64,000 bases of DNA from a virus: the IMG/VR virus record IMGVR_UViG_3300042197_002946, positions 1 to 64,000 of that record; one strand, written 5' to 3'. The notes beneath the pieces are model-generated. The model was given only the letters and a program-made list of their open reading frames with translations, did not search any database and was not told the origin of the DNA. Made by a program: the position numbers and the translations under genes. Of the stretch, positions 40,563 through 59,734 are shown piece by piece (within the stretch, counting starts at the first letter, position 1; each line of letters begins with the position of its first letter).

Positions 40563-40564
40563 TT

Positions 40565-40882
40565 ATGAATCACGAAAATGAGATTTACTATAATCTTGAA
40601 AAAAGATTTCAAACTACTATGATCGGTGCTTTAGCTAAGTTCGAAGATGCTTTCGGTAATCTATGGGGACATAATAAGCATGATAATGAACTAACAGATA
40701 AAGAATTAGATTTTAGAGACTTGTGGGAACGTACTAGAATGCTTATATTAAATAACGGCAATCATCAGATGCGTTCGGCTATTTCAGAGTTAACTAAACA
40801 TATTAGATCTAAATACAGGTATAACTATAAATTTTATGTGAAACCAAACTATCCAGAAAGAGGAGAAGACTATGAAGGCTAA
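40565..40882 (+). CDS. hypothetical protein
   Basis: operonic ORF. Confidence 0.7.
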   Translation: MNHENEIYYNLEKRFQTTMIGALAKFEDAFGNLWGHNKHDNELTDKELDFRDLWERTRMLILNNGNHQMRSAISELTKHIRSKYRYNYKFYVKPNYPERGEDYEG

Positions 40883-41801
40883 GACTTTTAAGATTAAGAT
40901 ACAAGATAATGAAGTGGAATTCTTAGTTAAGACACCATCCATCAACGACCAAAGAGAAGCTCAGAAGATTTATAATCAAGCTTTTACAGACGCTATTAAA
41001 TCTAAATGCGTGGTTAGAGCTAAGATGGACGATCTCCTAGAGGAACAAGGACTATGGAATCAGGACAAGCAGATAAAGTTCAATAAGCTGCAACAGGATA
41101 TTTTGGATTCTGAGAGAAAACTCGCCAAAGGCGGTATCTCACTGAAAGAAGCTAGAAATATTGCTATTCAGATGAAAAGAGATAGAGATGAAATTCGTTC
41201 ACTAATCGCCGTACGAACCTCACTAGATAATCATAGCGCAGAAGGACAGGCAGATAATGCTAGGTTTAACTACTTGGTATCTGTCTGCTTGGTGTATAAT
41301 AATGTCGAGAAACAACCATATTTTAATAATATGGAGGACTATCTAAATAGGTCAAATGAAGAGGTAGCTATCGTAGCTGCTCAGCATCTGGCTTCTATGT
41401 TGTATGGTTTGGATAACGACTATGAATTAAACTTGCCAGAAAATAAGTTTTTGAAGAAGTACAAATTTATTGATGATAAACTAAGATATATTAATAAAGA
41501 AGGTAAGCTTACTGATGCCGATGGTCGATTGGTTGATGAGAATGGAAGGTATGTGGATGAACAAGGTAACTTTGTTGATAAGTTTGGTAACAGAGTGGAC
41601 AAGGACGGAGAGTACGTTGTTGAGACTCAACCATTTTTAGATGATGATGGACAACCTGTTATTTTAGATGAAGATAAAAAAGATGAACCAACACCACAAC
41701 CTATATTGCCAGCTTCAGAACCAGTTACCCAATCTACTGAATCTGCCAAGGCTACACCAGAAACCCCAGCAGCTGTTTCCGAAACAGTTGTCGGTACTTG
41801 A
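40872..41801 (+). CDS. probable tail assembly chaperone with DxxG hairpin repeats
   Basis: directly before TMP; DADGRLVDENGRYVDEQGNFVDKFGNRVDKDG. Confidence 0.55.
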   Translation: MKAKTFKIKIQDNEVEFLVKTPSINDQREAQKIYNQAFTDAIKSKCVVRAKMDDLLEEQGLWNQDKQIKFNKLQQDILDSERKLAKGGISLKEARNIAIQMKRDRDEIRSLIAVRTSLDNHSAEGQADNARFNYLVSVCLVYNNVEKQPYFNNMEDYLNRSNEEVAIVAAQHLASMLYGLDNDYELNLPENKFLKKYKFIDDKLRYINKEGKLTDADGRLVDENGRYVDEQGNFVDKFGNRVDKDGEYVVETQPFLDDDGQPVILDEDKKDEPTPQPILPASEPVTQSTESAKATPETPAAVSETVVGT

Positions 41802-41904: not shown

Positions 41905-44900
41905 ATGGCTAAAGCTTTTAATCTTACAGCAGAATTAAATCTTAGAGGCCCATCTAATCTCAAGCAGATAGCAGCGTCCATTCGTAGAGAGATCGGGACC
42001 GTAGACGCTACTGTTAATGTTAAGATAGACAGAGCGGCCGAAAGATCCATACTTAATAGTGCTAATGCTCTAAATAGATTAAATAGAGAACTTCAGACAA
42101 CAGCAACAGCCTCAGCCTCATCCACCAATAACATCAACAACCTTGTCGCATCATTAAATAGCCTAAGTAATGCTTTGACTGGATCTAATAATTCTATGCA
42201 GCGCATAGTTTCTACATCAGAGCAAACAGCCAGACAAATGTCTCGAATTAGAAAGACGACAGCAGTAGCGCGAGATGAGATGGAAGAGTTTGGTCGTCAA
42301 TCAGCTTTGGCTGTGCGACGTTTTGCTGCCTTTAATTTTGCTACCGGAGTTATTTATGGTTTTTATAATGCAATTTCCAAAGCTTTGGGAGAATTTACAG
42401 AGTTTGATAGACAGTTGGTGCGATTAACGCAAATTACTGGAGAATCTTATAGCGAGCTAAGCAGGATAACAGAAACAATTACTGGATTATCAACCGGCTT
42501 GGGTGTTGCATCAGGAGACCTTATCCGCATATCGGATACATTAGCTCAGGCTGGCTTGAGTGCCAGAGAAACAGACCAAGCATTGAGGGCTTTGGCTTTG
42601 ACGGCTCTAGCTCCGTCCTTCGATGACCTGAATAACACTGTCGAAGGATCTATTGCATTAATGAGACAGTTTAAAATCGGTACTGATGATTTAGCTGGCG
42701 CTCTAGGTTCTATTAACGCAGTAGCTGCTGGTTTTGCTGTTGAGGCCGGTGATATTATTACAGCTATTCAGCGTACTGGTGGTGTGTTTGCCGCAGCTAG
42801 TAAAGGGGTTAGCGAAGGCACCGATGCGTTAAATGAATTTATTGCGGTATTTACTAGTGTAAGAGCCACAACTCGTGAAAGCGCAGAAACAATTGCTACA
42901 GGCTTGAGAACTATTTTTACTCGTATTCAACGAGAAGATACTATTGAGGCATTAAAAGAATATGGAGTTAATCTATTGGATGTAGAAGGTAAATTCGTTG
43001 GAGCTTATCGAGCTGTACAATTACTAAGCGAAGGTCTTGGCAAACTAGATCCTAGAGACGTAAGCTTTTCTAGAATAGTAGAAGAGCTTGGTGGATTTAG
43101 ACAGATTGGTAAGGTGCTTCCGTTGATTCAAGAATTCAGCACAGCACAACAAGCTTTAACAGTAGCTCAAAGAGGGCAAAATTCATTAGCGGCAGATGCA
43201 GCCAAAGCTCAGTCAGCATTAACAGTACAGTTTACCAAGACTAGAGAGTCATTTGTTGCTTTAATTCGAGATATTGGCAGTAGCGATAGCTTTAAAACAC
43301 TTATTAGTTTAGGCTTGACACTAGCTAATACATTCATCAAAGTAGCTGATTTCGCCAAGCCTCTACTTCCCATCCTAACAACCATCGCAGCATTACAAGG
43401 AGCTAAATCGTTAACGAGTTTTGTTGGTGGTTTCGTAGGGGGATTGCGTAAAGTACGTCCGGGAGAAGACGGAGGGGGCGGTGGAGGACCAGCTAATAGG
43501 GCTAGAACTGAAAGATCAGCCGCAGACATTACAGATAACTCTAGATATTTAGACGCCAACACCACAGCTTTGATGGGTCTGGGTACAGCTATGGGGGGTC
43601 TAACAGCAGTTATTAGTCCATTACAAGCTTCTATAGATAATTTGGGTAATGCAGCTATAGCTCAATTAAATAATGAGATTGTTGCTCTGAACAACACTAT
43701 GAGCAGTATTGATCTAGGCGGAGCCGCAACAGCTAAAGATGGTGGCAGAATATTACGTTTTGCTAGAGGAGGAGCTGTTCCTGGTAGCGGACGAGGAGAC
43801 AAAGTTCCGGCCATGCTGGAACCCGGTGAAGTTGTTATGAGCAATCGGGCTGTTAGTAAGTATGGAAGAGGTAATTTGGTAAGGATGAATAAGTATGCAA
43901 AAGGAGGAAAACCAAAAAGAGGAGTTCCTAATCAAGTTAATACTACGGATGTGGTTGATGGAGATACAATTGGTGCAGACATTTTCACCAATCTAACATT
44001 TAGATTTAGCGGAATTGACGCTCCAGAAAAATCTGAACCGCTTGGTGACAAAGCGACATCGGTATTGACTAACAAGAAGTTGAGCTACTTTAATAACAAA
44101 ATCACAAGTGGCGTCGGAGGTAAATCCAGGGGCTTATTTAAAGACGATGCATTAGCTGGCCAAATGATTCGTAGTGGTTTGGCAGTTCCAGATATAAGAT
44201 ATGCTAAGAACAAATTTAGTAGTGATGTTGAAGCAGGTAGAGCAGCAGGACAGGGCTTATGGAATAGTTCGTATGCTAATCATCCTAAAAGATTACAGTT
44301 TAAAGAGCAATACGGATATAGTTTTGGGGGTCAAATTCAAAAATTTATGAGCGGATCAGCCGGAGGAGTTAAGTCTAAACCCGAACCATTCGGTACAGGA
44401 GTCACCAAATTTCCTCGTCGTATAAGTAATGCCTACGCTAAACAGACGGAAAAGGAAAAGACAGATAGACATTTTGATAGACTCATACAAAACAGTCCTA
44501 TTAATGAAAGAATCATGGTTGATGAGGCTATGGAACAGCAGATATCCCAAGGGATGCAGCAGCCATTAGATCGTGAAAAATTTGCAGCGTCTTTTAGACG
44601 AGCTGTTTTAAGAGACGAAATAGCATCCAACATATCTAATTTTGCTAAATTGGTTGGACTTCCACAAGAAGATTTGTCTGTAGTATTACCAAGACAACTA
44701 GATTTTGGCTCTGGTTCTGGTCCTATAGGATCTCGTGGAGGTAGAGATGTTTTAGGTGGGGCTTTTACAACCATTAGTCCTTATGGTAGTCGTGGAGCAG
44801 AAGGCTGGGATCTTAGTGAGTTTGGTTATACTAAGCAGGACGAACAAGACCTATTCGGCTTAGAAAAACTGTTAGAAGAAAAGAAAAAAGAACGTGATAA

Positions 44901-47900
44901 AATACGCAAAACTCCAACACGTACTTTTGATGATGGTAGTTTTAGCTATGATTTGCAAGCCGCTGATAAGGCTAGCGATGAATATAATGCATTAAATAAA
45001 CAGATATATGATATTAGAAAAAAAAGAGATACTGCTATTTCTGCGGCCAACAAAGCTAGAGAAGAAGAAGTTGCATCATCTGGTAGAGCCACATTAGGTT
45101 TTGGTACTAGATTTGGTAAGGCTCAGAACCCTGTATTTTATCACGAATTAACACATCAACTATTCAAAGGATTAAGAGCAAAATCTGCTGATAGTTTTGA
45201 AAAATACAAGCAAAGAGTAACAACATTATTTGAAACCGACAACGATGGTTTGGCAGATGCTTTTGATGCTCTAGGTGCCGGTTATAGTAGTGCTGATGTT
45301 GTTTATGGACGAGCATATAAGCTAGATTTATTAGGAGCTAGACAAAGAGAAGAAATTAGAAAAGATCCAGCAGGAGAAGATGTTAAAAATCTGTCATCTA
45401 TTATTAAGTCTGGAAGTGCAGCTAAAAAAGCAACACAATTTCGCCCAATCAATCCAAGTTTCAATGAGGCTATGCTTAAGTTTTATAGCCAAGAGCATTT
45501 GGATAAGGTTGAAGATAATGGCAAAGAAGAATTCTTAACGACTCTTGTAGAAAAAATGCCGGTGTTGGACCAGCGTTTACAGGGCATATTGGACTCCACG
45601 ATGACAGAATTGTTGGGTGGAGCAGGAATACAGAGACAACAATATTTTGATGGTGGTTGGGTAGAAAGAATGAAAACACAACCAGACGACATATTACGTC
45701 GAGAGCTGCAGATGTTGCATTCTGGCAGTTTTATGCTATCGGTAGGAGAACGAAAAGTTTTAGCAAGTACTTTTGCTGGTCTTGGCAAATATGAAGATAT
45801 TGGAAAAAGAGAATTAGTAGCACGTATGCAGGCTATAAAAGATTATTTAGACGAAAGAGCTATTAACCAAAAAACAAAGTACGCAAAACGCAGAGGTCCT
45901 GGTCTACAAGCTACTGAAAAGTACAATGAACAAGAAATGTTGGATGCTGTTAACTACTATGCTGCTGGTAGTGGTCCTTTCACAAAGGCATTGGTTTCTG
46001 GCGCCAAAACGTTTAAGGAGCCCAGAGGAGAGACCTATAAAACAAAAGATATTAAAGATAGGCTATTAGCAGCTAGTCAATTTACAATCCCAAAGAAAAC
46101 CTATAGTGGTTTAGGACGAAGTCAATTTAGAGAAATATTGAGCGATACAAATACCACTCCCAAAAAACTTGCCACCAAAACAGACGAGACTTTACGAGGT
46201 TTGGTTGGTCAGACTATAGATTTTCCGACATTTTTATCCGTTAGCGCACAAAAAGATCAAGCAGAAGCTTTCGTACAAAATCCTGGAGCATTATTAAGTA
46301 TCGATGGTAGTAGTACAAGTCAAAAAACTATTGATGTTGTCAAAGCAAGAAGAAAAACACAAATTGATGACAGTGCGATTAAATCTAGCAGAAGATTAAA
46401 GGGCATAGAAAACATTAGCGAAAAAAAATTAGATATATACGAAGAAGAACAAGAGTTTATTGTTCCTCCTAATGTTGGTTTTAAAATCACCAAAGCCACA
46501 GGCACAGTTTACCAAGACCTTTCTGCTAAAGACTTAAAATCAAAATCTAAAAAAGCATTATCAGTATTTGATGATATCGATATGTTTTCTGATCCGGATA
46601 TTGATGATTTTGACAAGACTAGGCTCGATATTAAAGTGAATATGTTGAGATCGGGAGGTATTGTTCAAAAGTTCATGGACGGTGGAGTTGCTCAACGTAA
46701 GCTTGGTTATATAGACTATGATGTGATAGCTAATCCGGCTAATGAAGCTGTTGTAGCTAAAGGTATGGAAGCTACTGGAGTTAGCGGTCCTAGATTATAT
46801 ACTGATAAATTAATTGAAATGGCAGTCAAAGCCAGAAAAGAGCAGAGCTTAAATAAGCTTCGAGCTATTTATGGTGTTGCCGGAGCAGGAAAAACCACTA
46901 TGGCTCGTGGACAAGGTACCGACAAAGGAACTCTGCGAGAAACAACAAGATTTCCTATATTAAGTCCAGAGGATATTCATAGAGCCAATGAAATTATTCT
47001 ATTAAGTAGTAGTGTATCGCAAGATAAGTTGGATACACTATTTGCTGATGTAGATAGAGCTTATACTCTTAGTAGTACCACATCTGAAGAAAAAGAAAGA
47101 ATTAAAAGCCAAAGAGCAAGTCGAGACGCGACTGGAGTTGGTTTAGAGGGTCGTACTCCAGGATCAACTACTGGAGTTGCTAGGGATACTGTGGTAGGAG
47201 AAGCATTACTTGCTGATCGTTTAGGCGATAGGTCGGTTGTTCTAGGTCGTACGGAAAGTGGTAGACTAAGACGAAAAAGAGGGGACGAGCTTGTTGAAAT
47301 AGTTAAAAAGCGCATAGGAATGACTTGGGGCGGTTTTGCTCCTATGACAGCAGGACATGAAAGCATATTAGATGCTGCTGCTGCTATGGGCATATCTCCA
47401 GAAGACTTTGTATTTTTAGTAGGTTCTAATGAAAGCATAAAGCTTGGTGATCCATCTTCCTATAGAACAGCAATATTTAATCAAGACGCAAGAGTATTAT
47501 TAGCTAAAGCCGGAGCCGGAGCACGAGGAGCTACCGTAGTACCAAAAGCAGCAGATTTTGAGGTTCCTCTTGGTATAGATATTTCTGAACAAGAAGGCCG
47601 CAGAAAAGTGTTGTTGCCGGGCGAGGGCAGCACAGTTTTTGTTGCAGACAAAACAGAACAACAAACTGCAAAATATCGAGAAGCAGGATATAAGGTTAGT
47701 CATATAGAGCGCACGGGCGGAATTAGCGGCACTATGGTGAGAGATTTGATCATGAGCGGCAACATGGCCGAACTACAAAAGGTCTTAAGTCCAGGAGTTT
47801 ATGACTTAATTTCTAATAATATTGGGCGAATTCAGAATAGAGCTAATGTTTTACCAGATATTATAGAGCAGGTAAAACAAAGTCAGGGAGTTAAATTAGC

Positions 47901-50900
47901 AGAAGTTGAGAGAGCCATTAAGGCTGTGGGTATTAGCAGAATAGACCCAAAGAAGATGGAAGATCCAGAGTATGCTGCTAAAGTGCAAGTTTTAGAAGAG
48001 TTAAGATCACAAAGAGATAAGATTAAAAGATCAGCAGCTTTTGAGCCATACAGATTATTAGATAAATTAGCAGCTTCACAACCAGAACAATACGCTCTTG
48101 ATTTTAGTCAATCTCAGATAGCAACACCAGCGCCAGTACGTACAGTTAAAGACAGAGCCATGGCAGCAGTTGCAGCAGAAACCTCATCGTTGACATCGGT
48201 GTCTTCTGGGGATGCTGGTATCGGTACGGGACAATCCTTATTAGATAATTTGGCCACTAGACTTAAAGCACTAGGAGGAGAATCTGGTCTAAAAGCACTT
48301 CTCAAAGAAGTTGGAGAAGGTATTCCTTTGAATTTACAGAAACAATTACGCACAGACCAGATCAAACGGGGTGTTCTAGATACTGCTCGTGTTACTGGTC
48401 TTATTGAAAAAGCCGAAGAGAGACAGAGACAGAAAAAAGCTGAAAGAGAAGGCACAAGACATGTGGCTATGGCTGGACTACAGCCGTTAGATTATAGCTG
48501 GGACCCTGAATGGGAACTTGCTGATGGACGCAAATATATTGCTACTATTAGAGGATTTAAAAGCTCATATTTACAAGATATACAAAGATTTAGAGATAGA
48601 CAAAAAGCAGCCGCACTAGAATTTGGTAAAGATACAACAGCTACCGAGGCACTAGATCTATTAGGACAAAACACAGTACAAGGACCATCACGACCTCTGG
48701 CTATAGATTTTGATGAGACGTTAGCATTTGGCACAAAAATGTTAGACTCATCAGGTCAAGAAGATATCAGCGCTTATTATGATGAAGCCAGAGTGCGAGA
48801 GGTTTTATCTAAAGCAACACCCACAAGATTAGCACAAAGATTATTAGAGATAGAGAAAGATCAACCTGGTACTGTCAGAGCATATACACGAGTATTAACC
48901 GCACGAGCAGAATCATTAAAGCATTTAGTAACAGAAACACTGAATCGGTTCGGATTACCATATACTGATAGCGATATTACTGGAGTAGGACAAAGGGGAG
49001 ACAACGATAGAGCGATAGCTCGTAAAAAAGCCGATAATCTTAGCACAATAGAAAGATTTATTGACGATAATGAAAAGAACATCTCTGCTGCACAACAAAA
49101 AGGCATACAGTCTTACAGATACTCGGAACCTAAAGCTTTTGAGAATGCCTCCGACTATGAACCTTTTGGCGCTGGTAATATTGAGGGAGCTTTATTAGAA
49201 CAAACTTTGGCTATGAAAATTGGTCGGCCTATAGATTTTGAAGCTCTTGAACAAAATCGTGCTTTAGATTTTCCTAATGGTCTTGGAGCTGCTGCGTCGT
49301 TGTTTGGGCTACCACCCAATATAGAAACAGAAGTTAAGCGCACACTAAATAAGGATAGTTTTACAAAAGCTCGTAGTGAATTCAACAGATACTTTAAAGA
49401 AAATCCCGATAAGTATAATGCTGGTGGGGTTGCAGGATTTGCCGACGGAGGAACTGTACCAGCATTAGTTAGTAACGGAGAAGCTTATGTTCCTCCAAAA
49501 CTTGCTAAAAAAATAGGTTATGGCAAGCTAAACAGAATGAATCAAGCTGACCGTAATGGCATGGGTCGCTTCGCTGATGGGGGCATTAGCGTATTTAAAG
49601 GTCCAGGCAGTGGCACTAGCGATAGTATTCCAACCAGTTTACCAGTAGGAAGTTTCGTTATTAGAGCAAAGGCCACCAAGGCTTTGGGTCTTAATAGAGG
49701 AGGTAGCGTAGGAGTTACATCGCCTCAAAGATTTGAAATGGGCGGAGAAGTACTAACGGCCGCCGAAATGCAAAGACTAGAGTTGGACATGCGTAAAGTT
49801 TTTGAGTCTTTACCTGAACAATTACGAGACTCTATACGCAATTTAGACTTGCCGGATGTTGATACCAGCACATGGAATACCATAGATATTTCTTTAAGAA
49901 AAGTTTTCTTATCAGTAAATAGAAATGTTGATACTCTAGGTAAGGATGTTGTTGAGGCTATGAGAGCCATGACAACTGCTGGTCAAAATGCTTTGCAAAG
50001 TATCGATTTAGATAGAGTGCGCACTAGACAGTCGGAGATAGCTAGTGACAGAGGATATACTCAAGTAGATAAAGATAGGATGAAAGCAGATGTTTCCTTA
50101 GCTAAAGATGCTAGAGGAGCGGTATCAGATCGTAAAAGAAAAAATAGAGAACGACAGGAACAAGGAAAAGCTCCATTTCCGATGTTGGATTTGATGGAGA
50201 TGATGAGATCATCTGTTGGTAGATCTCCAGACCCTATCAGTGTCACTGCCGCTACTCCAGTTCCAGAAGTACAGTCACCATCAAGAGATGCTGAATATTA
50301 TCGTCAGCGCATGAATTATAGTGATGTGTCTGGAAATAAAAATACCCCTATTAGTGATAGAGGCATGGCATATGCTGGAGAATTGACTAAACAAGATGAC
50401 TCTAAAGTTGATGCTCTAGTTAAACAAATGAGAGATATGTTTTCTTCTGCTATGGCTGGGATAGGACAAACTCCGAGCGCTGCTGGACAGAGTGAGAGCT
50501 GGGCAACATGGGATATTGGTAAACAATTATTCATGAATCAGAATCCAGATCAAAGTTCTGACAAGTACCAACTTGGTAATCCTATGCAAGATCCTAAGCT
50601 AGTACTACAAATGGTACAACGCATGGTGGGTTATGAGGTTAGTGGTGGTGGGCAAAGAGAAGGGAAAGCCAACAACATACCATCTTTTGAATTAGTAGAA
50701 ATTGGCGCCAAAGCAATGGCTGAAAGTTTAGGTAAAAACCAAGCAGCTTTGGATGCGTTTTTGAGCTTAGTGAGCGGTATAACCGTAGACGATATTGTCG
50801 GACCAGCATCACCAGGAGCGCCAACGTCACCAACGCCACCAACAGCACCAATTCCACCCACTCCTCCGACTCCTCCATCTGGAGGCTCTCCACCTTCAGG

Positions 50901-53900
50901 TGGCGGAAGTCCTCCAGTTCCTCCGAGTAGTCCTCCTTCTGGCGACACTGAGGCTATGATTCAACGATATATGATGGAGCTTGAAACTGCTGCAAAAGCA
51001 ACTAAGCTACAAACATATCAGACAGAAAGACTAGCCGGAGCTACTGCTTCTGAAGCTAAGGCACGAGCAGACGCAGCCGCTTTCGCAGCCTATCAAGCAT
51101 TAGCTCAACAAAGACTAACAACAGCAACTACTGAAGAAGCTTCAGCAATCAATGAGGCTAGAAGTAGAATGGCTGCTACCAGAGGAGGAGCTACGGTTAC
51201 TGCTCAAGAATTTACCCCAGTAGCGCAATCTTTGAGCAGAGGAGGAGCCCCGGCACCAGACACTACAGACTACAGAAAACTAGCTCAAGACAATATTCAA
51301 GCATTGCAAGAAATGAATACTAGCGCATTAGCTTGGGCTGGAGGATCAGTCCTTGCCATTAAGGGACTAAGTGGGTTGGTAGGATCTTCCACTGCTTTAG
51401 GTAGCGCACTAGATGGAGTTTCCAATAGTGTTGGCAATACCCAAGCATTATTTTTAGGATTTAATAAGGTTCTTCGATTTGCATCAGAGATAGGAGTATC
51501 CGAAGAAGCATCCAAGAAAATAGAGGACTTTTCTGCCAAATTAATAGATGCTGGTCGTATGGTAAATAATTGGGCAGCTAAATTACCGGATGGACTATTT
51601 AAAAATTTAGCATCCAAATTAGGGGGAGGTATAGATTTGGGTGGAGGTCAATTAGGTAAACTAGGAGCTAAATTACCACAAGTTATTAGCAGTGTTACAT
51701 CATCGCTAACGGCTATTATGCCAACAGCTCAATTAGTTGTTGGTGGTCTCAATGCGGCAGCACAAGCGTTTATTGCTTATACTGATGCTATTCGAAATAA
51801 TAAAGTAGAGAATGCTACCAAAGCTTTGGATACTAGTTTAAAAAATGCCAGCAGTGCTTTGGATCTATATAATAAAAATACAGTAGATAATGCTAATCAG
51901 CTATCAGTAATGAATGCTGAGATTGGTAGAGCAGCCGCAGCAGCTAAAACTTTAGCAGACATAGATAAAACCAATCAAAAATGGAGTACTACTAATCTTA
52001 TTGGCGAAACACTAGCGATGGGTGGAGGAGGAGCAGAAAGCCGAGCCCAACGAGCAGAAATTTTGGACAAGAAAGGAACTATGGCATACGTTGGGTCACT
52101 ATTAGATTTTACAGGAGGTACTCAACAAAGATATTCCCAAGAATTAGCTCCACAGCAAGCTATCAAATCTTCTGAACAGTTCGCCAAGGTTGCCACTCTT
52201 ATTCAGCAGCAAAATCAAGCTAGATTTAAGGCTGGTGAAAGTTCATCAGATATTATGAATAGTCCTGAATGGGCACAACAAGCAGAAGTGATCGCAAGAG
52301 CTAATGCTGCTACAGAAGAAAGGCTACGATTAATAGATGCTGATATAAGCTTGTCTAAATCAGCTAGAGAAGCACGAAAGCAAGAATTGATACAATTCGC
52401 AGCAGCGGGAGCGGTAAGAAGTCAAGAAATTCAAGCCATTAGACAGGCAAATAATGACAGAGCCAATCAGGAGAGCGGAGCCCTCCTATACAGCTTAGAG
52501 CGAATGTTGAACAATATGGAACAGAGCATCAGTTCTGTAACATATTCATTAAGTAAGCTTGCCGATCAAACAGATTTACTTAGATCGTCTATGACGGGAG
52601 AGGCCAAAATAGGGTCTTCAAGAGTGGATGCTATTAATGTTTTACAAAATCCCAATGTATCTAGCGATGTAGAAAGAGCACAAGCATCTAAGACAGCTTC
52701 TCAGTTTTTTGGTGCTCAAGGGAAAGATATTGAGGGATTATTAAATTTTGGTCCTAAATTAGAAGAAACTATTTTGTCTTCCATCAATAGAACAGTTAAA
52801 GAAGATCCCAATGCTGGAAGCGGCAAAATCGAGGCTAGAATATCACAGAATTTGGAAAAAGAATTAGGCAAGCTAAATATTGATGCTGGACTTAGACAAG
52901 TTGTATCTAAACAAATGGCAGGATCCATCACTGACTCTAGAACAAAGGGTGATGATAAAACAGACTTTAAGACTCTTTTCAGTGAAACGGCAGCATTTGG
53001 AAAGATTGTTCAGTCAACTAAGAGAGCACAAGAAGCTGCTGTGAAAGCTTTAGAATTCTATCAGCAGTCAGTAAATAACTATGCTCAGTCAATGAATGAG
53101 ATGGTTAGTTTACAAATATCGTCTAACGAAAAATTTAGAAGAGCATCAGATATTCGTGCTCGTGGAGAGTTAGATCTAGCTAAAACTTTAGGAAAGAGCG
53201 TTTCATTCGAAAAATCAAAACAAGTGGCACAAGCTGGAGTTATCAGTCAAGCAGGCACAGCTGACCCAACAGCAATCTTTAATAATATAGGTCGTTTGGA
53301 ACAAGTTAGACAAAGTCAACAAGGAGCCTTAAACTCAGCAGTTCAAGGAGGACCACGTAATCAAAAAGATATAATAGCTTTCAATAGAGAGTTAGCTTCT
53401 ACAACAATGGGACTTAGAGAAAACTATGCCGCACTCAAGGGATTAGCAGAGAGTACGGAAGTAGCGCAAGCTGCTATGACCAAAATTGGAGAATTAAAAG
53501 CTAAAAATGAAGCAGGTCTTAATATTCTAGAAAGATTCGTAACATCTTCTCCAAAAGATCAAGCTAAATTAAGTGGCGCTTTTGAACGTTTAGATCGTAA
53601 TATGAATGGTCAAATTAATAATATGTGGGATTCTGCAAGAGTGCAAGAAGCATACAATGAAGCGCTACAAAGTGGCGCTAGTATGCAAGAAGCCCAAGAT
53701 GCAGCAGATTCGGCAGCTGCACAAGATAGAGGGGATACTCTAGAAGCGTTCAGAATGTTGGCTCCTATGCTTGGAGAAAATCAAAACGAATTAAAAGCCA
53801 ATATGCTTGAATCTATGATGAGAGAGTCTGGTACTGAAACCAGCCCAATGTTTAGTAAGGTTATCGAAGGACTCAGAAATCCCGAGCAAGATCCCCAGAT

Positions 53901-56900
53901 GGCAGAAGCTATCAATCAATACAAACAGGCTATCGAATTGCAGTCTCAAGCTAATCGTTACTTAGCTATGTTAGACGGTAGATTAGCTATAGACATTGGA
54001 CAGCAGTCTCAAGCAGCCTTTACTAACGCACTAAATGGTGTTGGTCAAGCTTTCGCTAATACCAATACAGCAGACATGGCTAAGGGTATTCAGCAATTAA
54101 ACGATCATCTCAGAGGCGGAGTTACCAAAGTTACAAATGTTGGCGGAGGTGGAGCCCTGCCTTTTGCTAGAGGAGGTAAGGTTGAATACCGAGCTGTTGG
54201 TGGGTCTATCTTCCAACCAAAAGGAACTGATACAGTACCAGCTATGTTAACTCCGGGAGAATTCGTAGTCAATAAGAGAGCCGCTTCTGCTAACAAAGGA
54301 ATTTTAACAGCTATTAATAATGGATACTCTAAAGGAGGTAGTGTCAAATATCTTGCTGAAGGCGGCTGGGTATCTGATATGTTAACTCCTGAAACCGATA
54401 GGTTCGGAGACGCTAAACCAGGGGAACTATATACCAAATGGGATGATTTTTCTAAGTTTGCCTCTGGCAATGATGTAAAAGCCAATATAGAAAAAATTAA
54501 AGCTAATAGTAAAGATATTTACTTTTATAAACCACACTCTTACCCAACATTCTCTGCTAGAGAAACTGAGAGTTCAGAATTGTTGTCTCAATTGAAATCT
54601 GGCATGGATGGAGATAATTCCTTTTTTGGTTTTCTTCCAGACTTTAGTATGAGTTTACTGAATACCGCAGGGAATATTATTGGAGCAACAGCACAAGGAG
54701 TTGGCACAGGGGCTGTGGGAGGCGCTGCTATGGCAGCTAATCCGGCTCAATTTGTATCTGCTACTGCTGCTGGTAATTTTTCACAAGGACAAAATACTGC
54801 CGGAGCTTTGTTGGGTAATGGTAAATTAGGAACAGCTGCGAGCTGGATATGGGAAGCTATGAAGTTTGTCCCAGGTTTAGGTGGAGTTGTTTCTGGTATA
54901 GACGCTTTTAAGAAATTAGTTTTTGATTATGATCTGATCGGTGGAGCACTAGAAGCCGTTAATGCTGTGTTCTCTCTAATACCATTTCCTGGAGCTGGCT
55001 TGCTTGGCAAGGGAATAAGTAAAGGATTGGGATGGATGATGAAAATTTTTGGAAAAGGTAGAGTAGCCACAATGGGTAAAACCTGGATACCTAAATTAAT
55101 AGAAGCCACTGGCGCAACAAGACTAATGAATACAGTAAAAGGATGGCTAGGTCAGGGGCCTGCTAATTTAGTGGAAAAATTACTACCAGATGTTGTTAAG
55201 AAAAAGCTTGGTCTAAATTTAGCTGGGGCTGGTAAATCTGGCGCAACGTTGGCTAGAGAAGGCATTGAACAAATGTCTCCTGATGTTTTGGATGCCTATA
55301 AAGCATATAGAAAAGCAGGAATGGCGGCTGATGAAGCTTTGGCTAGAGCTAAAGGCAGACTGAATTATGTGGGATCATCAACTAGCGGTATGCAAGCTTC
55401 GGCAGCACAAGCAGCAGCTAGAAATGCTAGCGATGCTGGGCTTGCTGGTAGAGCTACAATTAATGATATGGCCGCTAGGGCTGTCACAGGATCAGCATAC
55501 GGAGCCGGGGCTATGGGTACCGCCGCCGCTGGTACTGCATATATGCAGGGTCGAACACCCAGCGCAACCATGAGCGGGGCAGATAAACTGAAAAGTATCA
55601 CAGAAGCTCTTGGATTCAAGATCCCAGATCAGTTCAGAAGTCCAGAGACAACATCAAAAATCTTTGATGAAAATTTAGATAATTTAGCTCTGTCGGAGGC
55701 ACAGATGCAGTTATCTGCTGTTGAAATGTGGATCAAGGCTATAGATGAGGCTAATAAATGGTCAGAGACCAATAAGCCACCCAAAGCAAAGGCTTCGTAT
55801 TCCAATGGTTCTTATAATTTTACATCTGAACCAGTAAATAAAAAAGAGTATATGTATGCCACTATTGGAGAAGCACTAAGTACAGATGCTATCATGGGTG
55901 ATTTGAAACCCAATATAATTAAATTCTACAAGAGCGGTAATCCTACTTTATCTAATAGTCCAGACACCAATCAAATCAGCGCAGCTGCCGAGAGTTTCAT
56001 CAAGTCACAAGGTCGAGATTTTGATCAGTTATTAAGTACAGATAACTATAATAGATTTCAAGACATTAACAGTATCAAAGACTATTTACAAGATTACTAT
56101 GATAGTTTAAGAGAAATTAACACTGCAACCACGACACCAGAAAAATATAACTCCGCACACTGGAGTCCTGCTCAACCATCTAAACAAAAAGAAGGCAGAA
56201 TCTCCTCTATCTTAGGGTCTTTGCAGGCCGGTACTAGATATAGCTATGATTTTAAGAAATCTGAATTAGCCAAAGTCAGTGATTTCCAATGGGGGTCATC
56301 CGCACCAGCACCCGCTAAGGATGGAGAAAAACCCGCAGAATCCAAAGATACTGGAGATGTATTAACCGTTTATGGTACCGAAATGAGGGCGATTTGGTCA
56401 AATATTAGAGATGCTGAAGATGAAACTATCAAAGAGGCCATAAAGAATAAAAATATATGGGATGGAAAAGCAGAGAACGCTTTTAGAATTTACAAACAGG
56501 GATCATCTCCTGATCAATATGATCCTCTACCATGGACAACCAATCCGTCTTTAATTACAGCTGGAATGAGACAATTAGCTCAACAGTCTACGGAAGATAA
56601 TATAGCAAGTACTATAGGATTAAAAATGGGAACAGTGTCTCGTTTTGATAAAGTCATCGACCTGCCGAAAGCAAAAAGAGAACTACCAGTAAGCTTTAGC
56701 TACCAACCCTTCCAACAAATCCCACTATTAGATCCAGCGACTACAGATATTGATAGTGCTGTTAATCAATTTTTACCAGGAGCAACTTCAACAGAACCTA
56801 GTCCCACCCCTGTTCCTGGTGTGTTTATTAAATACAGAGCTACCGAAGCGGCAGACCCAACCCTCAGCCCATTCTCATCAATGGCTCCTGGGGCAGATAA

Positions 56901-59718
56901 GCTTATGCCTTATTATAGTAGTGTAGCTAATATGGAGAAAGCTGTCAACGATTGGGCATTAGGTAATTTTGATAGGGTGGCCGACTGGAGCTTGCTCGGA
57001 GTATCTCTTGCATCGGGATATTCGCCCATCAAGGCAGAAGCAGCAATGAAAAGCGCCGAGAGTATCAGAGGAGCCAGAACAAAAAGAAAGAGCAAAGAAG
57101 GATCTGTACCAGATAAAGAATCATCTATTAATAGTGCTACAGAATATTTATTTAAAAAAGATGCATTATTCTATAAGGATGATTTCTTATCGGCGGTGGA
57201 ACCATCATATCCAGAAGCTGGAAATATTGCAGGAGCTAAAATACCTAACCTTGTTGATATTATGCAGAGACGTGCGGCTAGGCAAATAGCTGGCAATAAA
57301 GATGCGAAAAAGGCAGAGATATCAGCTAAGGCCAGTTTAGTTAATTTCAAGAGCGAAGAAGTTCCTTTATTAGGTGATATTGTTTGGCAAAAAATTAAAG
57401 AATCATCACTAGCTGCTGGACCAGCATTATCTAGTGCTGCTGATTGGCAAAATGCAGCAACTGCTGACGGTGTTCCACCACCAGCTAAAATTAGTGGTCA
57501 AGACGATTTAATGGCAGCTGTGGACTATATAGCTTGGATTCAGGCTAAGGTACTAAGACTAAGAGATAAGGCCACAGAACAAAATAATAGAGAGTCTGTT
57601 GAAAATCTAGGCTCTGAAGCTGAATTTGGTAAGTACATGAGTGCTGGAAGATTTTTAAGTCAACTAGCTTCTGATTCTGAAAGGCCAGTAACAGCTAGTA
57701 CCACCATAGGACAAGCCAGTGAGAGACTGTACAGTAAATATATGAACGAGAATAAACTAGATAAATATATCAAAAAGTCTGCATTCAAGGACAAAGACTC
57801 TGGGAAAGATATAGAACAACAGTTCTGGGATGTTCCTAAAATTATCAATGAAGACAAAAGTTTTGTAGATTATATTCTTGGTTTTGCTAATCAGACTCGC
57901 ACAGCTCAAAGATTCAGACAAGCTGTCACAGGCAACGGTAGGGCAGAGCTGGGTGGTGAGCAGAAAGCGCTACTGCAAGGACAATTCAAAGCTTTTGGTC
58001 AATCAAAGAGCGCTACTGCTATGATGGGATCTGGAGCTAAAGATGCTGCTCAAACAACGATGAAAGTAGCTAGTGCTGATGGTATAGAAGAAATTGCTAT
58101 TCCAACAGAAATAGATAATGTTATTGATCAATTTTTAGATACTAGTAAGGTTTATGAACCACTATACAGAGAAACTTTAGGCAAAATACTTGAGACTAAC
58201 GGTAGAACATACGCAGAAAAATGGACAAAAAGCGGAGACCCAGGCACTGCTGGATGGGCTTCTATATGGGGAGAGTATTCAGAGCAACTCACAGCTTTAA
58301 CTGACTTTTTAGTTAATAGAGACAGATTATTAATGAGACCCATAGCAACCGAAGGGTCTTCTTTATATCCTCCAGCCGTCTTGCCATCTATCTCAGAAAG
58401 CTTATTGCCCACTTTACAATCTGTTGCTCAGGTTTCTGGCATTAAGCCCCCAGAAGATGTCACGGCCGAAACGCTATTGGGAGCTATTAATGATAGAGCA
58501 TTGATGATGGAGCAGATCAAGAGATTTATGGCCTCGGTTTCTCCCACTGCCCCAGAGGACTACGAGAAACGCGATCAAATGAAGAAAATAGCCAAACAAG
58601 CGATGGATTTTTATGAAAACAATCTGTCCCCATCTTCGTTACCTAGAGTCTTTACTCAAGAGGGTAATGAGATATGGAATAAATTACGAGAAAATTATAA
58701 AGCTGCAAATGAAGCGTATATGGGTTTTGCTGCTGATGGTAGCGATGTCTCTGTAGGACTAGGATCTTTGGAGGATATTTATAACCCATCACAAATGCCA
58801 TATGCACAAAATACATTATACGGTTTATATTATAGACTTAATAAACAAGCAGGTACTAATAATACAGTAGAGGCTCTTATGAATGAGAAGGCTGCTAAAG
58901 ACAAGGCAGCAGCAGCAGGAGCAACACCAAAACCAGAAACACAAACCCAAGACGTACCAGCACAAGCGGCAGCCGCTGCTCCCAAAGAGCCGGAACCAGG
59001 AATACCTCCAGAACCAACCAGAGAAGAAGCAGAAAGAAAAGTACAGGCCAGAGCTAAGGGTGGTCTAATTTATAGAGCTGATGGAGGAGCAGCTCCTGTG
59101 AATTGGAGCCCAAGAGGCACTGATACTGTACCAGCCATGTTAACTCCTGGCGAATTTGTGATCAATAGAGGAGCTACACAGAAATACTTACCAATTTTAG
59201 AAGCTATTAATAATGGCAGTACAACAGCTGGTCAAATTGTTACATATGCTAATCGTGGTGGAGTAATTAAACCTAAATATTTCCAAGTGGGTGGAAGTGT
59301 TGAAGGAGCCTCAAGTGGTGTATCTACTTCATATAGTATGGGGTTTGATAGTGCCACATTGGCCGCTATTAAGCAATTTGATAGCAGTGTTCAATCTCTT
59401 GGAGATGCTTTATCCGGATTACAACTTGGCAACATCAAAATAGATGAGGCTGCATTAAGTGCATTGGGGGATTTTGCTACACGATTTGATCAGTTTACAC
59501 AAAGCTTATTGAAACTCAATGTACCACCAGTTATTAGCATCACAGGACAACATGAGGTCAATGTGAATATTAATGGCACATCTGTATTTAATAATATGGA
59601 AGAGAAAATGAAGCAGCTTATTAGTCAAGAAGTGGATAAGGCTTTCACTCAGCTATCTAAGGAAACAGAAGGTAACATTACTATGAATTATAAGCCACCA
59701 CAATCACCCATGGGTTAA
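41905..59718 (+). CDS. giant (5937 aa) multidomain tape measure protein with embedded enzyme domains
   Basis: TP901-type TMP core in first ~500 aa (LAQAG...TRESAETIATGLRTIFTRI); GTDTVPAMLTPGEFV modules; SNase, HExxH, ART, P-loop, TxGH NTase and HAD motifs. Confidence 0.9.
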   Translation: MAKAFNLTAELNLRGPSNLKQIAASIRREIGTVDATVNVKIDRAAERSILNSANALNRLNRELQTTATASASSTNNINNLVASLNSLSNALTGSNNSMQRIVSTSEQTARQMSRIRKTTAVARDEMEEFGRQSALAVRRFAAFNFATGVIYGFYNAISKALGEFTEFDRQLVRLTQITGESYSELSRITETITGLSTGLGVASGDLIRISDTLAQAGLSARETDQALRALALTALAPSFDDLNNTVEGSIALMRQFKIGTDDLAGALGSINAVAAGFAVEAGDIITAIQRTGGVFAAASKGVSEGTDALNEFIAVFTSVRATTRESAETIATGLRTIFTRIQREDTIEALKEYGVNLLDVEGKFVGAYRAVQLLSEGLGKLDPRDVSFSRIVEELGGFRQIGKVLPLIQEFSTAQQALTVAQRGQNSLAADAAKAQSALTVQFTKTRESFVALIRDIGSSDSFKTLISLGLTLANTFIKVADFAKPLLPILTTIAALQGAKSLTSFVGGFVGGLRKVRPGEDGGGGGGPANRARTERSAADITDNSRYLDANTTALMGLGTAMGGLTAVISPLQASIDNLGNAAIAQLNNEIVALNNTMSSIDLGGAATAKDGGRILRFARGGAVPGSGRGDKVPAMLEPGEVVMSNRAVSKYGRGNLVRMNKYAKGGKPKRGVPNQVNTTDVVDGDTIGADIFTNLTFRFSGIDAPEKSEPLGDKATSVLTNKKLSYFNNKITSGVGGKSRGLFKDDALAGQMIRSGLAVPDIRYAKNKFSSDVEAGRAAGQGLWNSSYANHPKRLQFKEQYGYSFGGQIQKFMSGSAGGVKSKPEPFGTGVTKFPRRISNAYAKQTEKEKTDRHFDRLIQNSPINERIMVDEAMEQQISQGMQQPLDREKFAASFRRAVLRDEIASNISNFAKLVGLPQEDLSVVLPRQLDFGSGSGPIGSRGGRDVLGGAFTTISPYGSRGAEGWDLSEFGYTKQDEQDLFGLEKLLEEKKKERDKIRKTPTRTFDDGSFSYDLQAADKASDEYNALNKQIYDIRKKRDTAISAANKAREEEVASSGRATLGFGTRFGKAQNPVFYHELTHQLFKGLRAKSADSFEKYKQRVTTLFETDNDGLADAFDALGAGYSSADVVYGRAYKLDLLGARQREEIRKDPAGEDVKNLSSIIKSGSAAKKATQFRPINPSFNEAMLKFYSQEHLDKVEDNGKEEFLTTLVEKMPVLDQRLQGILDSTMTELLGGAGIQRQQYFDGGWVERMKTQPDDILRRELQMLHSGSFMLSVGERKVLASTFAGLGKYEDIGKRELVARMQAIKDYLDERAINQKTKYAKRRGPGLQATEKYNEQEMLDAVNYYAAGSGPFTKALVSGAKTFKEPRGETYKTKDIKDRLLAASQFTIPKKTYSGLGRSQFREILSDTNTTPKKLATKTDETLRGLVGQTIDFPTFLSVSAQKDQAEAFVQNPGALLSIDGSSTSQKTIDVVKARRKTQIDDSAIKSSRRLKGIENISEKKLDIYEEEQEFIVPPNVGFKITKATGTVYQDLSAKDLKSKSKKALSVFDDIDMFSDPDIDDFDKTRLDIKVNMLRSGGIVQKFMDGGVAQRKLGYIDYDVIANPANEAVVAKGMEATGVSGPRLYTDKLIEMAVKARKEQSLNKLRAIYGVAGAGKTTMARGQGTDKGTLRETTRFPILSPEDIHRANEIILLSSSVSQDKLDTLFADVDRAYTLSSTTSEEKERIKSQRASRDATGVGLEGRTPGSTTGVARDTVVGEALLADRLGDRSVVLGRTESGRLRRKRGDELVEIVKKRIGMTWGGFAPMTAGHESILDAAAAMGISPEDFVFLVGSNESIKLGDPSSYRTAIFNQDARVLLAKAGAGARGATVVPKAADFEVPLGIDISEQEGRRKVLLPGEGSTVFVADKTEQQTAKYREAGYKVSHIERTGGISGTMVRDLIMSGNMAELQKVLSPGVYDLISNNIGRIQNRANVLPDIIEQVKQSQGVKLAEVERAIKAVGISRIDPKKMEDPEYAAKVQVLEELRSQRDKIKRSAAFEPYRLLDKLAASQPEQYALDFSQSQIATPAPVRTVKDRAMAAVAAETSSLTSVSSGDAGIGTGQSLLDNLATRLKALGGESGLKALLKEVGEGIPLNLQKQLRTDQIKRGVLDTARVTGLIEKAEERQRQKKAEREGTRHVAMAGLQPLDYSWDPEWELADGRKYIATIRGFKSSYLQDIQRFRDRQKAAALEFGKDTTATEALDLLGQNTVQGPSRPLAIDFDETLAFGTKMLDSSGQEDISAYYDEARVREVLSKATPTRLAQRLLEIEKDQPGTVRAYTRVLTARAESLKHLVTETLNRFGLPYTDSDITGVGQRGDNDRAIARKKADNLSTIERFIDDNEKNISAAQQKGIQSYRYSEPKAFENASDYEPFGAGNIEGALLEQTLAMKIGRPIDFEALEQNRALDFPNGLGAAASLFGLPPNIETEVKRTLNKDSFTKARSEFNRYFKENPDKYNAGGVAGFADGGTVPALVSNGEAYVPPKLAKKIGYGKLNRMNQADRNGMGRFADGGISVFKGPGSGTSDSIPTSLPVGSFVIRAKATKALGLNRGGSVGVTSPQRFEMGGEVLTAAEMQRLELDMRKVFESLPEQLRDSIRNLDLPDVDTSTWNTIDISLRKVFLSVNRNVDTLGKDVVEAMRAMTTAGQNALQSIDLDRVRTRQSEIASDRGYTQVDKDRMKADVSLAKDARGAVSDRKRKNRERQEQGKAPFPMLDLMEMMRSSVGRSPDPISVTAATPVPEVQSPSRDAEYYRQRMNYSDVSGNKNTPISDRGMAYAGELTKQDDSKVDALVKQMRDMFSSAMAGIGQTPSAAGQSESWATWDIGKQLFMNQNPDQSSDKYQLGNPMQDPKLVLQMVQRMVGYEVSGGGQREGKANNIPSFELVEIGAKAMAESLGKNQAALDAFLSLVSGITVDDIVGPASPGAPTSPTPPTAPIPPTPPTPPSGGSPPSGGGSPPVPPSSPPSGDTEAMIQRYMMELETAAKATKLQTYQTERLAGATASEAKARADAAAFAAYQALAQQRLTTATTEEASAINEARSRMAATRGGATVTAQEFTPVAQSLSRGGAPAPDTTDYRKLAQDNIQALQEMNTSALAWAGGSVLAIKGLSGLVGSSTALGSALDGVSNSVGNTQALFLGFNKVLRFASEIGVSEEASKKIEDFSAKLIDAGRMVNNWAAKLPDGLFKNLASKLGGGIDLGGGQLGKLGAKLPQVISSVTSSLTAIMPTAQLVVGGLNAAAQAFIAYTDAIRNNKVENATKALDTSLKNASSALDLYNKNTVDNANQLSVMNAEIGRAAAAAKTLADIDKTNQKWSTTNLIGETLAMGGGGAESRAQRAEILDKKGTMAYVGSLLDFTGGTQQRYSQELAPQQAIKSSEQFAKVATLIQQQNQARFKAGESSSDIMNSPEWAQQAEVIARANAATEERLRLIDADISLSKSAREARKQELIQFAAAGAVRSQEIQAIRQANNDRANQESGALLYSLERMLNNMEQSISSVTYSLSKLADQTDLLRSSMTGEAKIGSSRVDAINVLQNPNVSSDVERAQASKTASQFFGAQGKDIEGLLNFGPKLEETILSSINRTVKEDPNAGSGKIEARISQNLEKELGKLNIDAGLRQVVSKQMAGSITDSRTKGDDKTDFKTLFSETAAFGKIVQSTKRAQEAAVKALEFYQQSVNNYAQSMNEMVSLQISSNEKFRRASDIRARGELDLAKTLGKSVSFEKSKQVAQAGVISQAGTADPTAIFNNIGRLEQVRQSQQGALNSAVQGGPRNQKDIIAFNRELASTTMGLRENYAALKGLAESTEVAQAAMTKIGELKAKNEAGLNILERFVTSSPKDQAKLSGAFERLDRNMNGQINNMWDSARVQEAYNEALQSGASMQEAQDAADSAAAQDRGDTLEAFRMLAPMLGENQNELKANMLESMMRESGTETSPMFSKVIEGLRNPEQDPQMAEAINQYKQAIELQSQANRYLAMLDGRLAIDIGQQSQAAFTNALNGVGQAFANTNTADMAKGIQQLNDHLRGGVTKVTNVGGGGALPFARGGKVEYRAVGGSIFQPKGTDTVPAMLTPGEFVVNKRAASANKGILTAINNGYSKGGSVKYLAEGGWVSDMLTPETDRFGDAKPGELYTKWDDFSKFASGNDVKANIEKIKANSKDIYFYKPHSYPTFSARETESSELLSQLKSGMDGDNSFFGFLPDFSMSLLNTAGNIIGATAQGVGTGAVGGAAMAANPAQFVSATAAGNFSQGQNTAGALLGNGKLGTAASWIWEAMKFVPGLGGVVSGIDAFKKLVFDYDLIGGALEAVNAVFSLIPFPGAGLLGKGISKGLGWMMKIFGKGRVATMGKTWIPKLIEATGATRLMNTVKGWLGQGPANLVEKLLPDVVKKKLGLNLAGAGKSGATLAREGIEQMSPDVLDAYKAYRKAGMAADEALARAKGRLNYVGSSTSGMQASAAQAAARNASDAGLAGRATINDMAARAVTGSAYGAGAMGTAAAGTAYMQGRTPSATMSGADKLKSITEALGFKIPDQFRSPETTSKIFDENLDNLALSEAQMQLSAVEMWIKAIDEANKWSETNKPPKAKASYSNGSYNFTSEPVNKKEYMYATIGEALSTDAIMGDLKPNIIKFYKSGNPTLSNSPDTNQISAAAESFIKSQGRDFDQLLSTDNYNRFQDINSIKDYLQDYYDSLREINTATTTPEKYNSAHWSPAQPSKQKEGRISSILGSLQAGTRYSYDFKKSELAKVSDFQWGSSAPAPAKDGEKPAESKDTGDVLTVYGTEMRAIWSNIRDAEDETIKEAIKNKNIWDGKAENAFRIYKQGSSPDQYDPLPWTTNPSLITAGMRQLAQQSTEDNIASTIGLKMGTVSRFDKVIDLPKAKRELPVSFSYQPFQQIPLLDPATTDIDSAVNQFLPGATSTEPSPTPVPGVFIKYRATEAADPTLSPFSSMAPGADKLMPYYSSVANMEKAVNDWALGNFDRVADWSLLGVSLASGYSPIKAEAAMKSAESIRGARTKRKSKEGSVPDKESSINSATEYLFKKDALFYKDDFLSAVEPSYPEAGNIAGAKIPNLVDIMQRRAARQIAGNKDAKKAEISAKASLVNFKSEEVPLLGDIVWQKIKESSLAAGPALSSAADWQNAATADGVPPPAKISGQDDLMAAVDYIAWIQAKVLRLRDKATEQNNRESVENLGSEAEFGKYMSAGRFLSQLASDSERPVTASTTIGQASERLYSKYMNENKLDKYIKKSAFKDKDSGKDIEQQFWDVPKIINEDKSFVDYILGFANQTRTAQRFRQAVTGNGRAELGGEQKALLQGQFKAFGQSKSATAMMGSGAKDAAQTTMKVASADGIEEIAIPTEIDNVIDQFLDTSKVYEPLYRETLGKILETNGRTYAEKWTKSGDPGTAGWASIWGEYSEQLTALTDFLVNRDRLLMRPIATEGSSLYPPAVLPSISESLLPTLQSVAQVSGIKPPEDVTAETLLGAINDRALMMEQIKRFMASVSPTAPEDYEKRDQMKKIAKQAMDFYENNLSPSSLPRVFTQEGNEIWNKLRENYKAANEAYMGFAADGSDVSVGLGSLEDIYNPSQMPYAQNTLYGLYYRLNKQAGTNNTVEALMNEKAAKDKAAAAGATPKPETQTQDVPAQAAAAAPKEPEPGIPPEPTREEAERKVQARAKGGLIYRADGGAAPVNWSPRGTDTVPAMLTPGEFVINRGATQKYLPILEAINNGSTTAGQIVTYANRGGVIKPKYFQVGGSVEGASSGVSTSYSMGFDSATLAAIKQFDSSVQSLGDALSGLQLGNIKIDEAALSALGDFATRFDQFTQSLLKLNVPPVISITGQHEVNVNINGTSVFNNMEEKMKQLISQEVDKAFTQLSKETEGNITMNYKPPQSPMG

Positions 59719-59734
59719 ATAAAAAGAGAGAACT

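Follow-up and report, generated by a model that had tools for sequence, protein, structure and literature searches.

What does a train of enzymes do inside the tape measure protein (TMP) of a phage? TMPs are usually seen as rulers and DNA channels that carry, at most, one cell-wall enzyme. The stretch of DNA considered here, referred to as the window, covers the opening 64 kb of a viral record made of a single 150,336-bp contig, which originates from an uncultured lake phage (freshwater). An initial sequence-only reading had proposed that one of its open reading frames (ORFs) encodes a TMP loaded with several enzymes destined for injection. The evidence reviewed below makes it probable that the host receives, through the tail, a set of enzymes that can be exchanged.

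Tape measure protein and genomic setting

The ORF at 41905-59718 is free of stops over its 5937 aa, and its product is a TMP: TIGR01760 matches the N-terminal part with 84.7 bits (cut-off 28.8), and PF10145 matches the core with an E-value of 5e-22 (79.2 vs. a cut-off of 33.2). It is the longest tail gene, located 3' of the putative tube and chaperone genes and 5' of the putative tip genes, and it is preceded by a conserved head-completion-like block, a candidate tube gene and three candidate chaperone genes. The gene order around it is kept in 56-59 of the 59 loci compared. Terminase and portal genes (PHROG matches) are present in the genome and point to portal-terminase packaging. The TMP outside its enzyme-bearing part and the genes just upstream are organized as follows.

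38004..39257, plus strand: candidate tail tube protein, internally duplicated, in 57/59 loci
39504..41801, plus strand: three genes (352, 105, and 309 aa) 5' of the TMP gene, in 59/59 loci
41905..59718, plus strand: tape measure protein, cysteine-free, 5937 aa (ORF, TIGR01760)
41905..43758, plus strand: N-terminal TMP core (aa 1-618; PF10145, TIGR01760), in 59/59 related TMPs
49747..54162, plus strand: variable stretch, Pro-rich hinge and second conserved helical core (aa 2615-4086)
54367..59049, plus strand: variable region with no assigned function (aa 4155-5715), including a Gly-rich, mildly hydrophobic part (aa 4258-4360)
59296..59718, plus strand: C-terminal piece (aa 5798-5937), candidate tail-tip plug equivalent to gpHC by analogy (PMC12617516)

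The candidate tail tube protein has no match in library searches, and its two halves align with each other (hhalign probability 89.8, E-value 1.8e-6). The tail tube of T5 is a tandem-domain protein, which these two homologous halves resemble. The position of the three pre-TMP genes makes them candidate tail assembly chaperones; the first and the third (39504-40562 and 40872-41801) are N-terminal paralogues (blastp E-value 9e-7). These paralogues exceed usual tail chaperones in size, and the second of the two (40872-41801) ends in a repeated D-x-x-G tract. No sheath is detected among the tail-region genes scanned, many of which match nothing, and, among cultured phages, the terminase and the TMP come closest to those of Bacillus siphoviruses (~25% identity); a long non-contractile tail of the siphovirus type is therefore likely. 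Regarding the host, the search returned three GTDB matches that resemble phage contigs binned into unrelated MAGs.

Within the TMP gene there is no excess of promoters or terminators, and no 19-residue window of the protein exceeds a Kyte-Doolittle value of 1.5. The Pro-rich hinge lies at about aa 2967-3013 (about 50803-50943). By eye, the segment aa 4258-4360 (window 54676-55000) looks like pre-toxin translocation segments, and Pfam gives no match for it. Several other features of the record can be mentioned. Beyond the TMP, record positions 59735-109036 (L081-L083) are taken up over 50 kb by tail-region genes of very large size (1,100-2,500 aa). RCC1 repeats, F5/8 lectin and beta-roll domains are found among their products, and most of these genes are without family match. 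Two RgpF-like glycosyltransferase genes lie within the structural block (window 31965-32831 and 34817-35758), and a head-tail region gene with CxxC motifs (window 35811-36323) is conserved in 56/59 loci. Window positions 1-12000 have a higher GC content than the rest, a strongly negative GC skew and many short minus-strand ORFs; the GC skew flips at about 13 kb, at the transcription strand switch.

The same layout recurs in 59 distinct IMG/VR TMPs, and at least 129 TMP representatives below 50% identity share it, with lengths of 1,508-7,279 aa. In each of two runs from a sample that is possibly the source, a single unitig covers 45492-60100 with zero differences, while 5' of 45492 only short exact unitigs are found, the graph being broken by coexisting strains. 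The joint between the ADP-ribosyltransferase (ART) and the P-loop domain described below is bridged by a unitig from another study at ~93% identity. A chimeric ORF, which the sequence-only reading had named as fatal to its proposal, is thus unlikely in view of the spanning unitigs and of this bridge.

Enzyme domains of the cargo zone

The cargo zone (residues 669-2503) of the TMP harbors seven domains in a row, i.e., SNase, HExxH, ART, P-loop, HIGH-type nucleotidyltransferase (NTase), HAD and PD-(D/E)XK-like domains.

43909..44358, plus strand: SNase-like nuclease cassette (aa 669-818), profile match
44359..45657, plus strand: HExxH (zincin-like) cassette with a long coiled-coil insert (aa 819-1251), from its motif
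45658..46686, plus strand: VIP2/ModB-like ART cassette (aa 1252-1594), fold and PF03496
46687..47289, plus strand: P-loop kinase-like domain (aa 1595-1795), Walker A, always adjoining the NTase
47290..48189, plus strand: HIGH-type NTase of NMNAT/PPAT fold, plus helical extension (aa 1796-2095)
48190..49149, plus strand: N-terminal extension and T4 Pnkp-type HAD phosphatase (HAD core aa 2256-2415)
49150..49413, plus strand: small PD-(D/E)XK-like domain (aa 2416-2503), triad present, often degenerate in relatives

All the motifs first listed sit at the residues given for them, namely DGDT (685), GIDAPE (703), HELTH (1080), EQEF (1515), GVAGAGKT (1657), TAGH (1815), DFDET (2268), and EVK (2476). 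In comparisons with folds and profiles, the assignments hold by fold for the ART, NTase, and HAD domains and by profile for the SNase, whereas the HExxH, P-loop and PD-(D/E)XK-like domains have conserved motifs and no convincing library or fold match, so that these assignments stay at the level of motifs.

Regarding the fold-supported domains, the ART is matched by PF03496 in 7/7 homologues (best E-value 1.2e-8), and its model matches ARTs of the VIP2/C3 type and of the phage ModA/ModB type (VIA: Z 12.1, rmsd 3.4, 157 aligned). It keeps an STS-like FxS strand and the ExE motif; the position of the first-strand Arg is occupied by Ser or Thr in all copies where this strand is readable. It is thus not filed as a canonical R-S-E member and would work like that family at best, its activity not being assured given this replacement across the family. 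The AlphaFold2 model of aa 1595-2505 is confident (mean pLDDT 82.7). There, the NTase superimposes on NMNAT (Z 13.2, rmsd 2.7, 154 aligned) and is matched to PPAT too; with its (H/T)xGH and SxT motifs, the modelled domain can be assigned to the NMNAT/PPAT type, the substrate class being left wide. The HAD domain resembles the T4 Pnkp 3'-phosphatase (Z 11.3, rmsd 3.3, 125 aligned) and has all of the DxD, T, K, and DD motifs; the profile search by sequence missed the PDB, and it is the fold search that found the Pnkp match. The SNase has a Pfam E-value of 0.002, below the Pfam cut-off, together with DGDT and GIDxPE motifs, and in the ESM Atlas it scores 0.92, with 28/30 matches to PF00565; the SNase part of the AlphaFold2 model (two rows only) is not confident.

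The HExxH cassette is a unit of 427-446 aa found in 11 TMPs at differing positions; HE[LM]THQ and, further downstream, EEF are kept without change in 9 homologues. It is unmatched in Pfam, PDB and protein searches, scores 0.79 in the ESM Atlas (low recognition) and is not listed in the fold searches, which the ART dominated. Its model has the strand-helix order of zincins, and its motif suggests a zincin-like peptidase. The P-loop domain has a conserved Walker A and weak profile matches, including one to a gluconate-kinase-like chain (E-value 0.013); neither it nor the small C-terminal domain is listed in the fold searches, which were dominated by the NTase and the HAD. In the PD-(D/E)XK-like domain, the E..D..(D/E)xK triad is present in the window copy, an ExK or DxK is found in 64/134 copies, and the PDB search gave no match. 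This ~80-aa domain is found in 37/59 TMPs, where it sits in many cassette families that are unrelated to one another, for the most part close to their C-terminal end. Among its best 150 library matches, nearly all are TMP-like proteins of great length, and the domain may serve as a structural or handling tag and not as a nuclease. Since this domain is often degenerate and the ART lacks its first-strand Arg, some of the cargo may be non-catalytic.

Further cassettes of relatives, read by eye from consensus sequences, comprise GNAT-like, H-Y-type ART-like, a second SNase-like family, and two PD-(D/E)XK-like families, and Pfam gave no match for most of them. A length-limited search found no stand-alone close homologues of the P-loop or HAD cassettes, and the P-loop/NTase/HAD unit is unmatched among cultured phages. 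The P-loop and NTase domains are found in the same 17 related TMPs, adjacent each time, and the HAD separately in 24. The pairing of P-loop and HAD as a fixed Pnkp unit was rejected since the two travel separately, and a NadR-like kinase/adenylyltransferase pair is favored instead.

GG modules and the [FY]AxGG junction

Most cassettes end at a short motif, [FY]AxGG, which thereby bounds them. In the window TMP, about 20 copies of this type are found, some at the borders of cassettes and others within four longer GG modules.

43759..43908, plus strand: GG module 1 (aa 619-668), opens the cargo zone, homologous to lambda gpH 751-785
49414..49746, plus strand: GG module 2, doubled (aa 2504-2614), closes the cargo zone
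54163..54366, plus strand: GG module 3 (aa 4087-4154)
59050..59295, plus strand: GG module 4 (aa 5716-5797), 140 aa from the C terminus, as in lambda gpH

Conservation of the motif is seen in the protein sequence (aromatic, Ala, x, Gly, Gly). In 60 TMPs, [FY]xxGG occurs 560 times against 91 expected, i.e., six-fold over composition, and in 129 further TMPs 1348 times against 227 expected. Within aa 1595-2503 the window protein is free of it, whereas relatives have some copies there; four of its domains are fused without motif. A profile of the GG module matches lambda gpH 751-785 (E-value 5.5e-4), the TMP of phage Douge twice (E-value 2.9e-8) and 399 cultured phage records, mostly TMPs and often twice per TMP; a PDB search with one single module sequence yielded noise only, the matches coming from the profile. 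Judged by these profile matches, the long GG module is an ordinary TMP element, and the [FY]AxGG motif derives from the GG module, which in lambda gpH is located close to the C-terminal region that is cut. The best cultured matches are proteins of T4-like cyanophages (KM359505.1, NC_047838.1, and MK867354.2, one of them annotated as a lysozyme), so that the module is not confined to siphovirus TMPs.

Exchange of cassettes at the junction

Splitting the related TMPs at the motif yields discrete cassette families in varying order and number, within cargo zones of 274-2,300 aa (median 1,262). Internal homology between TMPs tends to end at the junction: 239 of the 608 ends fall within 30 aa of the masked motif, compared with a random mean of 100.5 and maximum of 129, and equally masked decoys attract 68-87 ends vs. 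222-240 for the motif. The same can be seen among strains of a single sample, which may be the source, where variants branch off in frame from the reference at aa 665 and at aa 1246. Each of these points is at a motif, after which the variant goes on with another motif and an unlike sequence; one variant, which leaves at the first motif of the SNase cassette, rejoins the reference 435 nt later at the last one, at the end of this cassette. Cargo swapping, which had been predicted as something to look for in the TMPs of relatives, is thus found both as cassettes shuffled at the motif in the 59 related TMPs and among co-occurring strains that branch exactly at motifs. Sequence comparison hence shows that cassettes are exchanged between phages at the motif.

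Selection, cysteine content and tail length

The cargo is under purifying selection, with dN/dS values of 0.05-0.24 for 21 cassette pairs. In copies taken from 50%-identity representatives, the catalytic motifs are kept at 92-98%, namely HExxH in 19/20, HAD in 56/57, P-loop in 35/37 and NTase in 34/37.

There is no cysteine in the window TMP, nor in 56,014 cargo residues of its relatives. Over 500,957 TMP residues, 46 cysteines are found and 109/129 TMP representatives have none, while cysteine makes up 1.76% of the non-structural proteins of the same genome and occurs in traces in most of its other structural proteins. The His content of the cargo is low as well (0.47% vs. 2.57%). The captured enzymes have therefore been purged to the standard of the ruler itself. 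Such a loss fits a chain of which an extracellular particle contains 3-6 unfolded copies and which has to cross the envelope. It is a constraint common to cargo and ruler and says nothing of arrival in the cytoplasm.

Cargo length correlates with total TMP length (rho 0.70) and not with the rest of the protein (0.27, n.s.; n = 19), so that cargo adds to the total without compensation. Together with the absence of cysteine, this supports, indirectly, packaging in the tail. Phage Douge has a tail of 269.6 nm for a TMP of 1699 aa (PMC13033339), i.e., a scale of 0.15-0.16 nm per residue, by which a tail of 0.89-0.94 µm is predicted for the full chain and one of 0.62-0.65 µm for a cargo-free chain. 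The tail lumen had been pictured as a magazine in the sequence-only reading; as folded domains in 3-6 copies are too large for a 3-4 nm channel, such a magazine must hold unfolded chains.

Proposed mechanism and alternatives

It can be hypothesized that ruler segments and enzyme cassettes are joined in the TMP as parts of one polyprotein. Chaperones would hold the whole chain extended while it is threaded, cargo included, into a tail tube of ~0.9 µm. Cutting at or near each motif would follow tail assembly, in the manner of lambda gpH and T5 pb2. At infection, the pieces would exit C terminus first, the helical parts building a trans-envelope channel and the cassettes passing unfolded to the cytoplasm before the DNA, to refold where NAD+, ATP and nucleic acids are found and to act in the first minutes of infection. 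The P-loop and NTase domains would form a NadR-like pair rebuilding NAD+ or a related nucleotide, the HAD would heal nucleic-acid ends or remove signalling phosphates, the ART and HExxH domains would modify or cut host proteins, and the SNase and PD-(D/E)XK domains would cut nucleic acids, while swapping at the motif would allow the phage to adapt its set of enzymes to the defences of local hosts. Phages have NAD-rebuilding pathways, and by analogy the P-loop/NTase pair could counter NAD-depleting defences. Delivery to the cytoplasm, enzyme activity and a role against defences are what we infer from this arrangement. A TMP that is unfolded when packed, is cut at the motifs, leaves the particle before the DNA and refolds in the cytoplasm seems to us slightly better than an even bet. 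The wider proposition, in which the tail lumen of a widespread group of aquatic siphoviruses is a programmable injection magazine whose cassettes are packed unfolded, cut at the motif shared with gpH, and brought to the cytoplasm before the DNA, the motif marking the gpH cut as well, is evenly balanced.

The cutting step is where this model meets its main rival, which keeps delivery and drops cutting: the cargo would be packed and ejected uncut, the motif being a flexible joint and a stretch of recombination homology, and the enzymes would stay tethered to the TMP channel and guard the incoming DNA. TMP cutting is known for lambda and T5 only, and the cut site and protease of gpH are still called unknown (PMC12617516). 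No candidate for a general processing protease was found, with no JAB or NlpC/P60 match among the tail-region genes scanned, many of which are matchless; the HExxH cassette was rejected for this function, being present in only 19/129 TMPs. Douge has two GG modules, and its tail length gives no hint of events there (PMC13033339). All the evidence on swapping needs nothing beyond a recombination joint, the four domains fused here without motif suit an uncut chain, and a ManZ-fused proximity enzyme, at the inner membrane, labels the lambda TMP during injection (10.1101/2025.11.03.685801). However, the conservation of the motif at the protein level is tighter than a recombination joint requires, and the motif derives, by its profile matches, from a module in the gpH cut region. 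Uncut delivery consequently appears unlikely, if still a serious contender.

The remaining readings, i.e., late action, spacers or decoys, and artefact, fit worse than either the cut-and-delivered model or its uncut rival. Cassettes could be released in the producing cell, during or before assembly, and act late or be packed elsewhere, e.g., in the head, the tail then containing only ruler segments. Such an early release would do away with the difficulty of fitting folded domains into the tube, and has a precedent in DdrB of phage P1, a polyvalent protein that is processed before packaging (PMC5512222). Yet the ruler must stay continuous during tube growth, and in lambda it is cut only after assembly (PMC12617516); moreover, the total loss of Cys and the low His are unexpected for enzymes that remain cytoplasmic, and a separate late gene would be a simpler route to the same job, which makes this reading improbable. 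Quite improbable, too, is the idea that catalysis is irrelevant and that the cassettes are captured spacers, decoys against TMP-sensing defences or selfish inserts targeting the motif. Host defences that bind TMPs do exist (SNIPE), and the degenerate PD-(D/E)XK-like copies and the atypical ART site would suit inert inserts, but catalytic motifs are nearly invariant among proteins less than 50% identical, dN/dS is in the purifying range (0.05-0.24) and kinase and NTase are always paired. Lastly, an assembly chimera or chance motifs can be practically dismissed: the region 5' of 45492 rests on short unitigs from several coexisting strains and the core-to-SNase joint is bridged with fewer than 31 letters on one side, but a single unitig runs from the ART to the C terminus, a second study bridges ART and P-loop, and the layout is common to at least 129 TMPs below 50% identity.

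With regards to the cut-and-delivered model, several implications can be drawn. Enzymes of cytoplasmic type, in changing sets and with many of them belonging to no named family, are present in hundreds of divergent TMPs of up to 7,279 aa, and these cassettes would constitute a library of candidate anti-defence or host-takeover proteins whose action precedes the expression of any phage gene. For the cleavage site of lambda gpH, the junction motif is a concrete candidate. Tails close to one micrometre, with a length varying with cargo load, are predicted.

Comparison with known systems

Contractile machines provide one precedent for the use of the tail lumen. In extracellular contractile injection systems and the T6SS, effectors are loaded inside the lumen of the tail tube; these are separate effectors in contractile bacterial machines, whereas here the cargo is part of the ruler and no sheath is detected. 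The ART model of the window TMP matches phage ARTs of the ModA/ModB type, and the T4 ART Alt is delivered by the virion, but the T4 enzymes are stand-alone proteins from the head or from early genes and not cassettes of a tail lumen.

Among TMPs, those of mycobacteriophages and T5 that contain a peptidoglycan hydrolase also have the enzyme inside the TMP, but it acts on the cell wall. In lambda gpH, the same GG module is found close to the C terminus, and a piece of ~14 kDa is removed from this Gly-rich region once the tail is assembled (PMC12617516); cleavage of T5 pb2 frees a muralytic enzyme domain (PMC10038345). In both cases there is one cut and at most one cell-wall enzyme, in contrast to the four module sites and ~20 motifs of the window TMP, whose cargo would have cytoplasmic substrates.

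The closest architecture is that of polyvalent proteins, chains of phages and conjugative elements for which delivery at invasion and processing have been proposed (Iyer et al., 2017, PMC5512222). The analogy, already drawn in the first reading, is borne out in that unrelated enzymes are combined in one chain of variable architecture, encoded by a phage with portal-terminase packaging, with a putative zincin-like peptidase and an ART in common, and GNAT-like and H-Y-type ART-like cassettes in relatives. The hallmark Pfam families MPTase-PolyVal, ART-PolyVal, LPD, and MuF are not found in the window protein; ART-PolyVal reaches an E-value of 0.0026, below cut-off, in one analysed sequence (L021). 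Polyvalent proteins have been proposed to be packed in capsids or transferred by T4SS, whereas here the chassis is a TMP and the joints are marked by a fixed motif. The words "tape", SNase, NMNAT, PNKP, and HAD family occur nowhere in the text of PMC5512222, and a literature search that covered only a minority of subscription papers found no description of multi-enzyme TMPs. The TMP family, the gpH module, and the polyvalent-type architecture are thus known, and what appears to be new is a TMP chassis with a defined joint for trains of enzymes that would be delivered by the virion.
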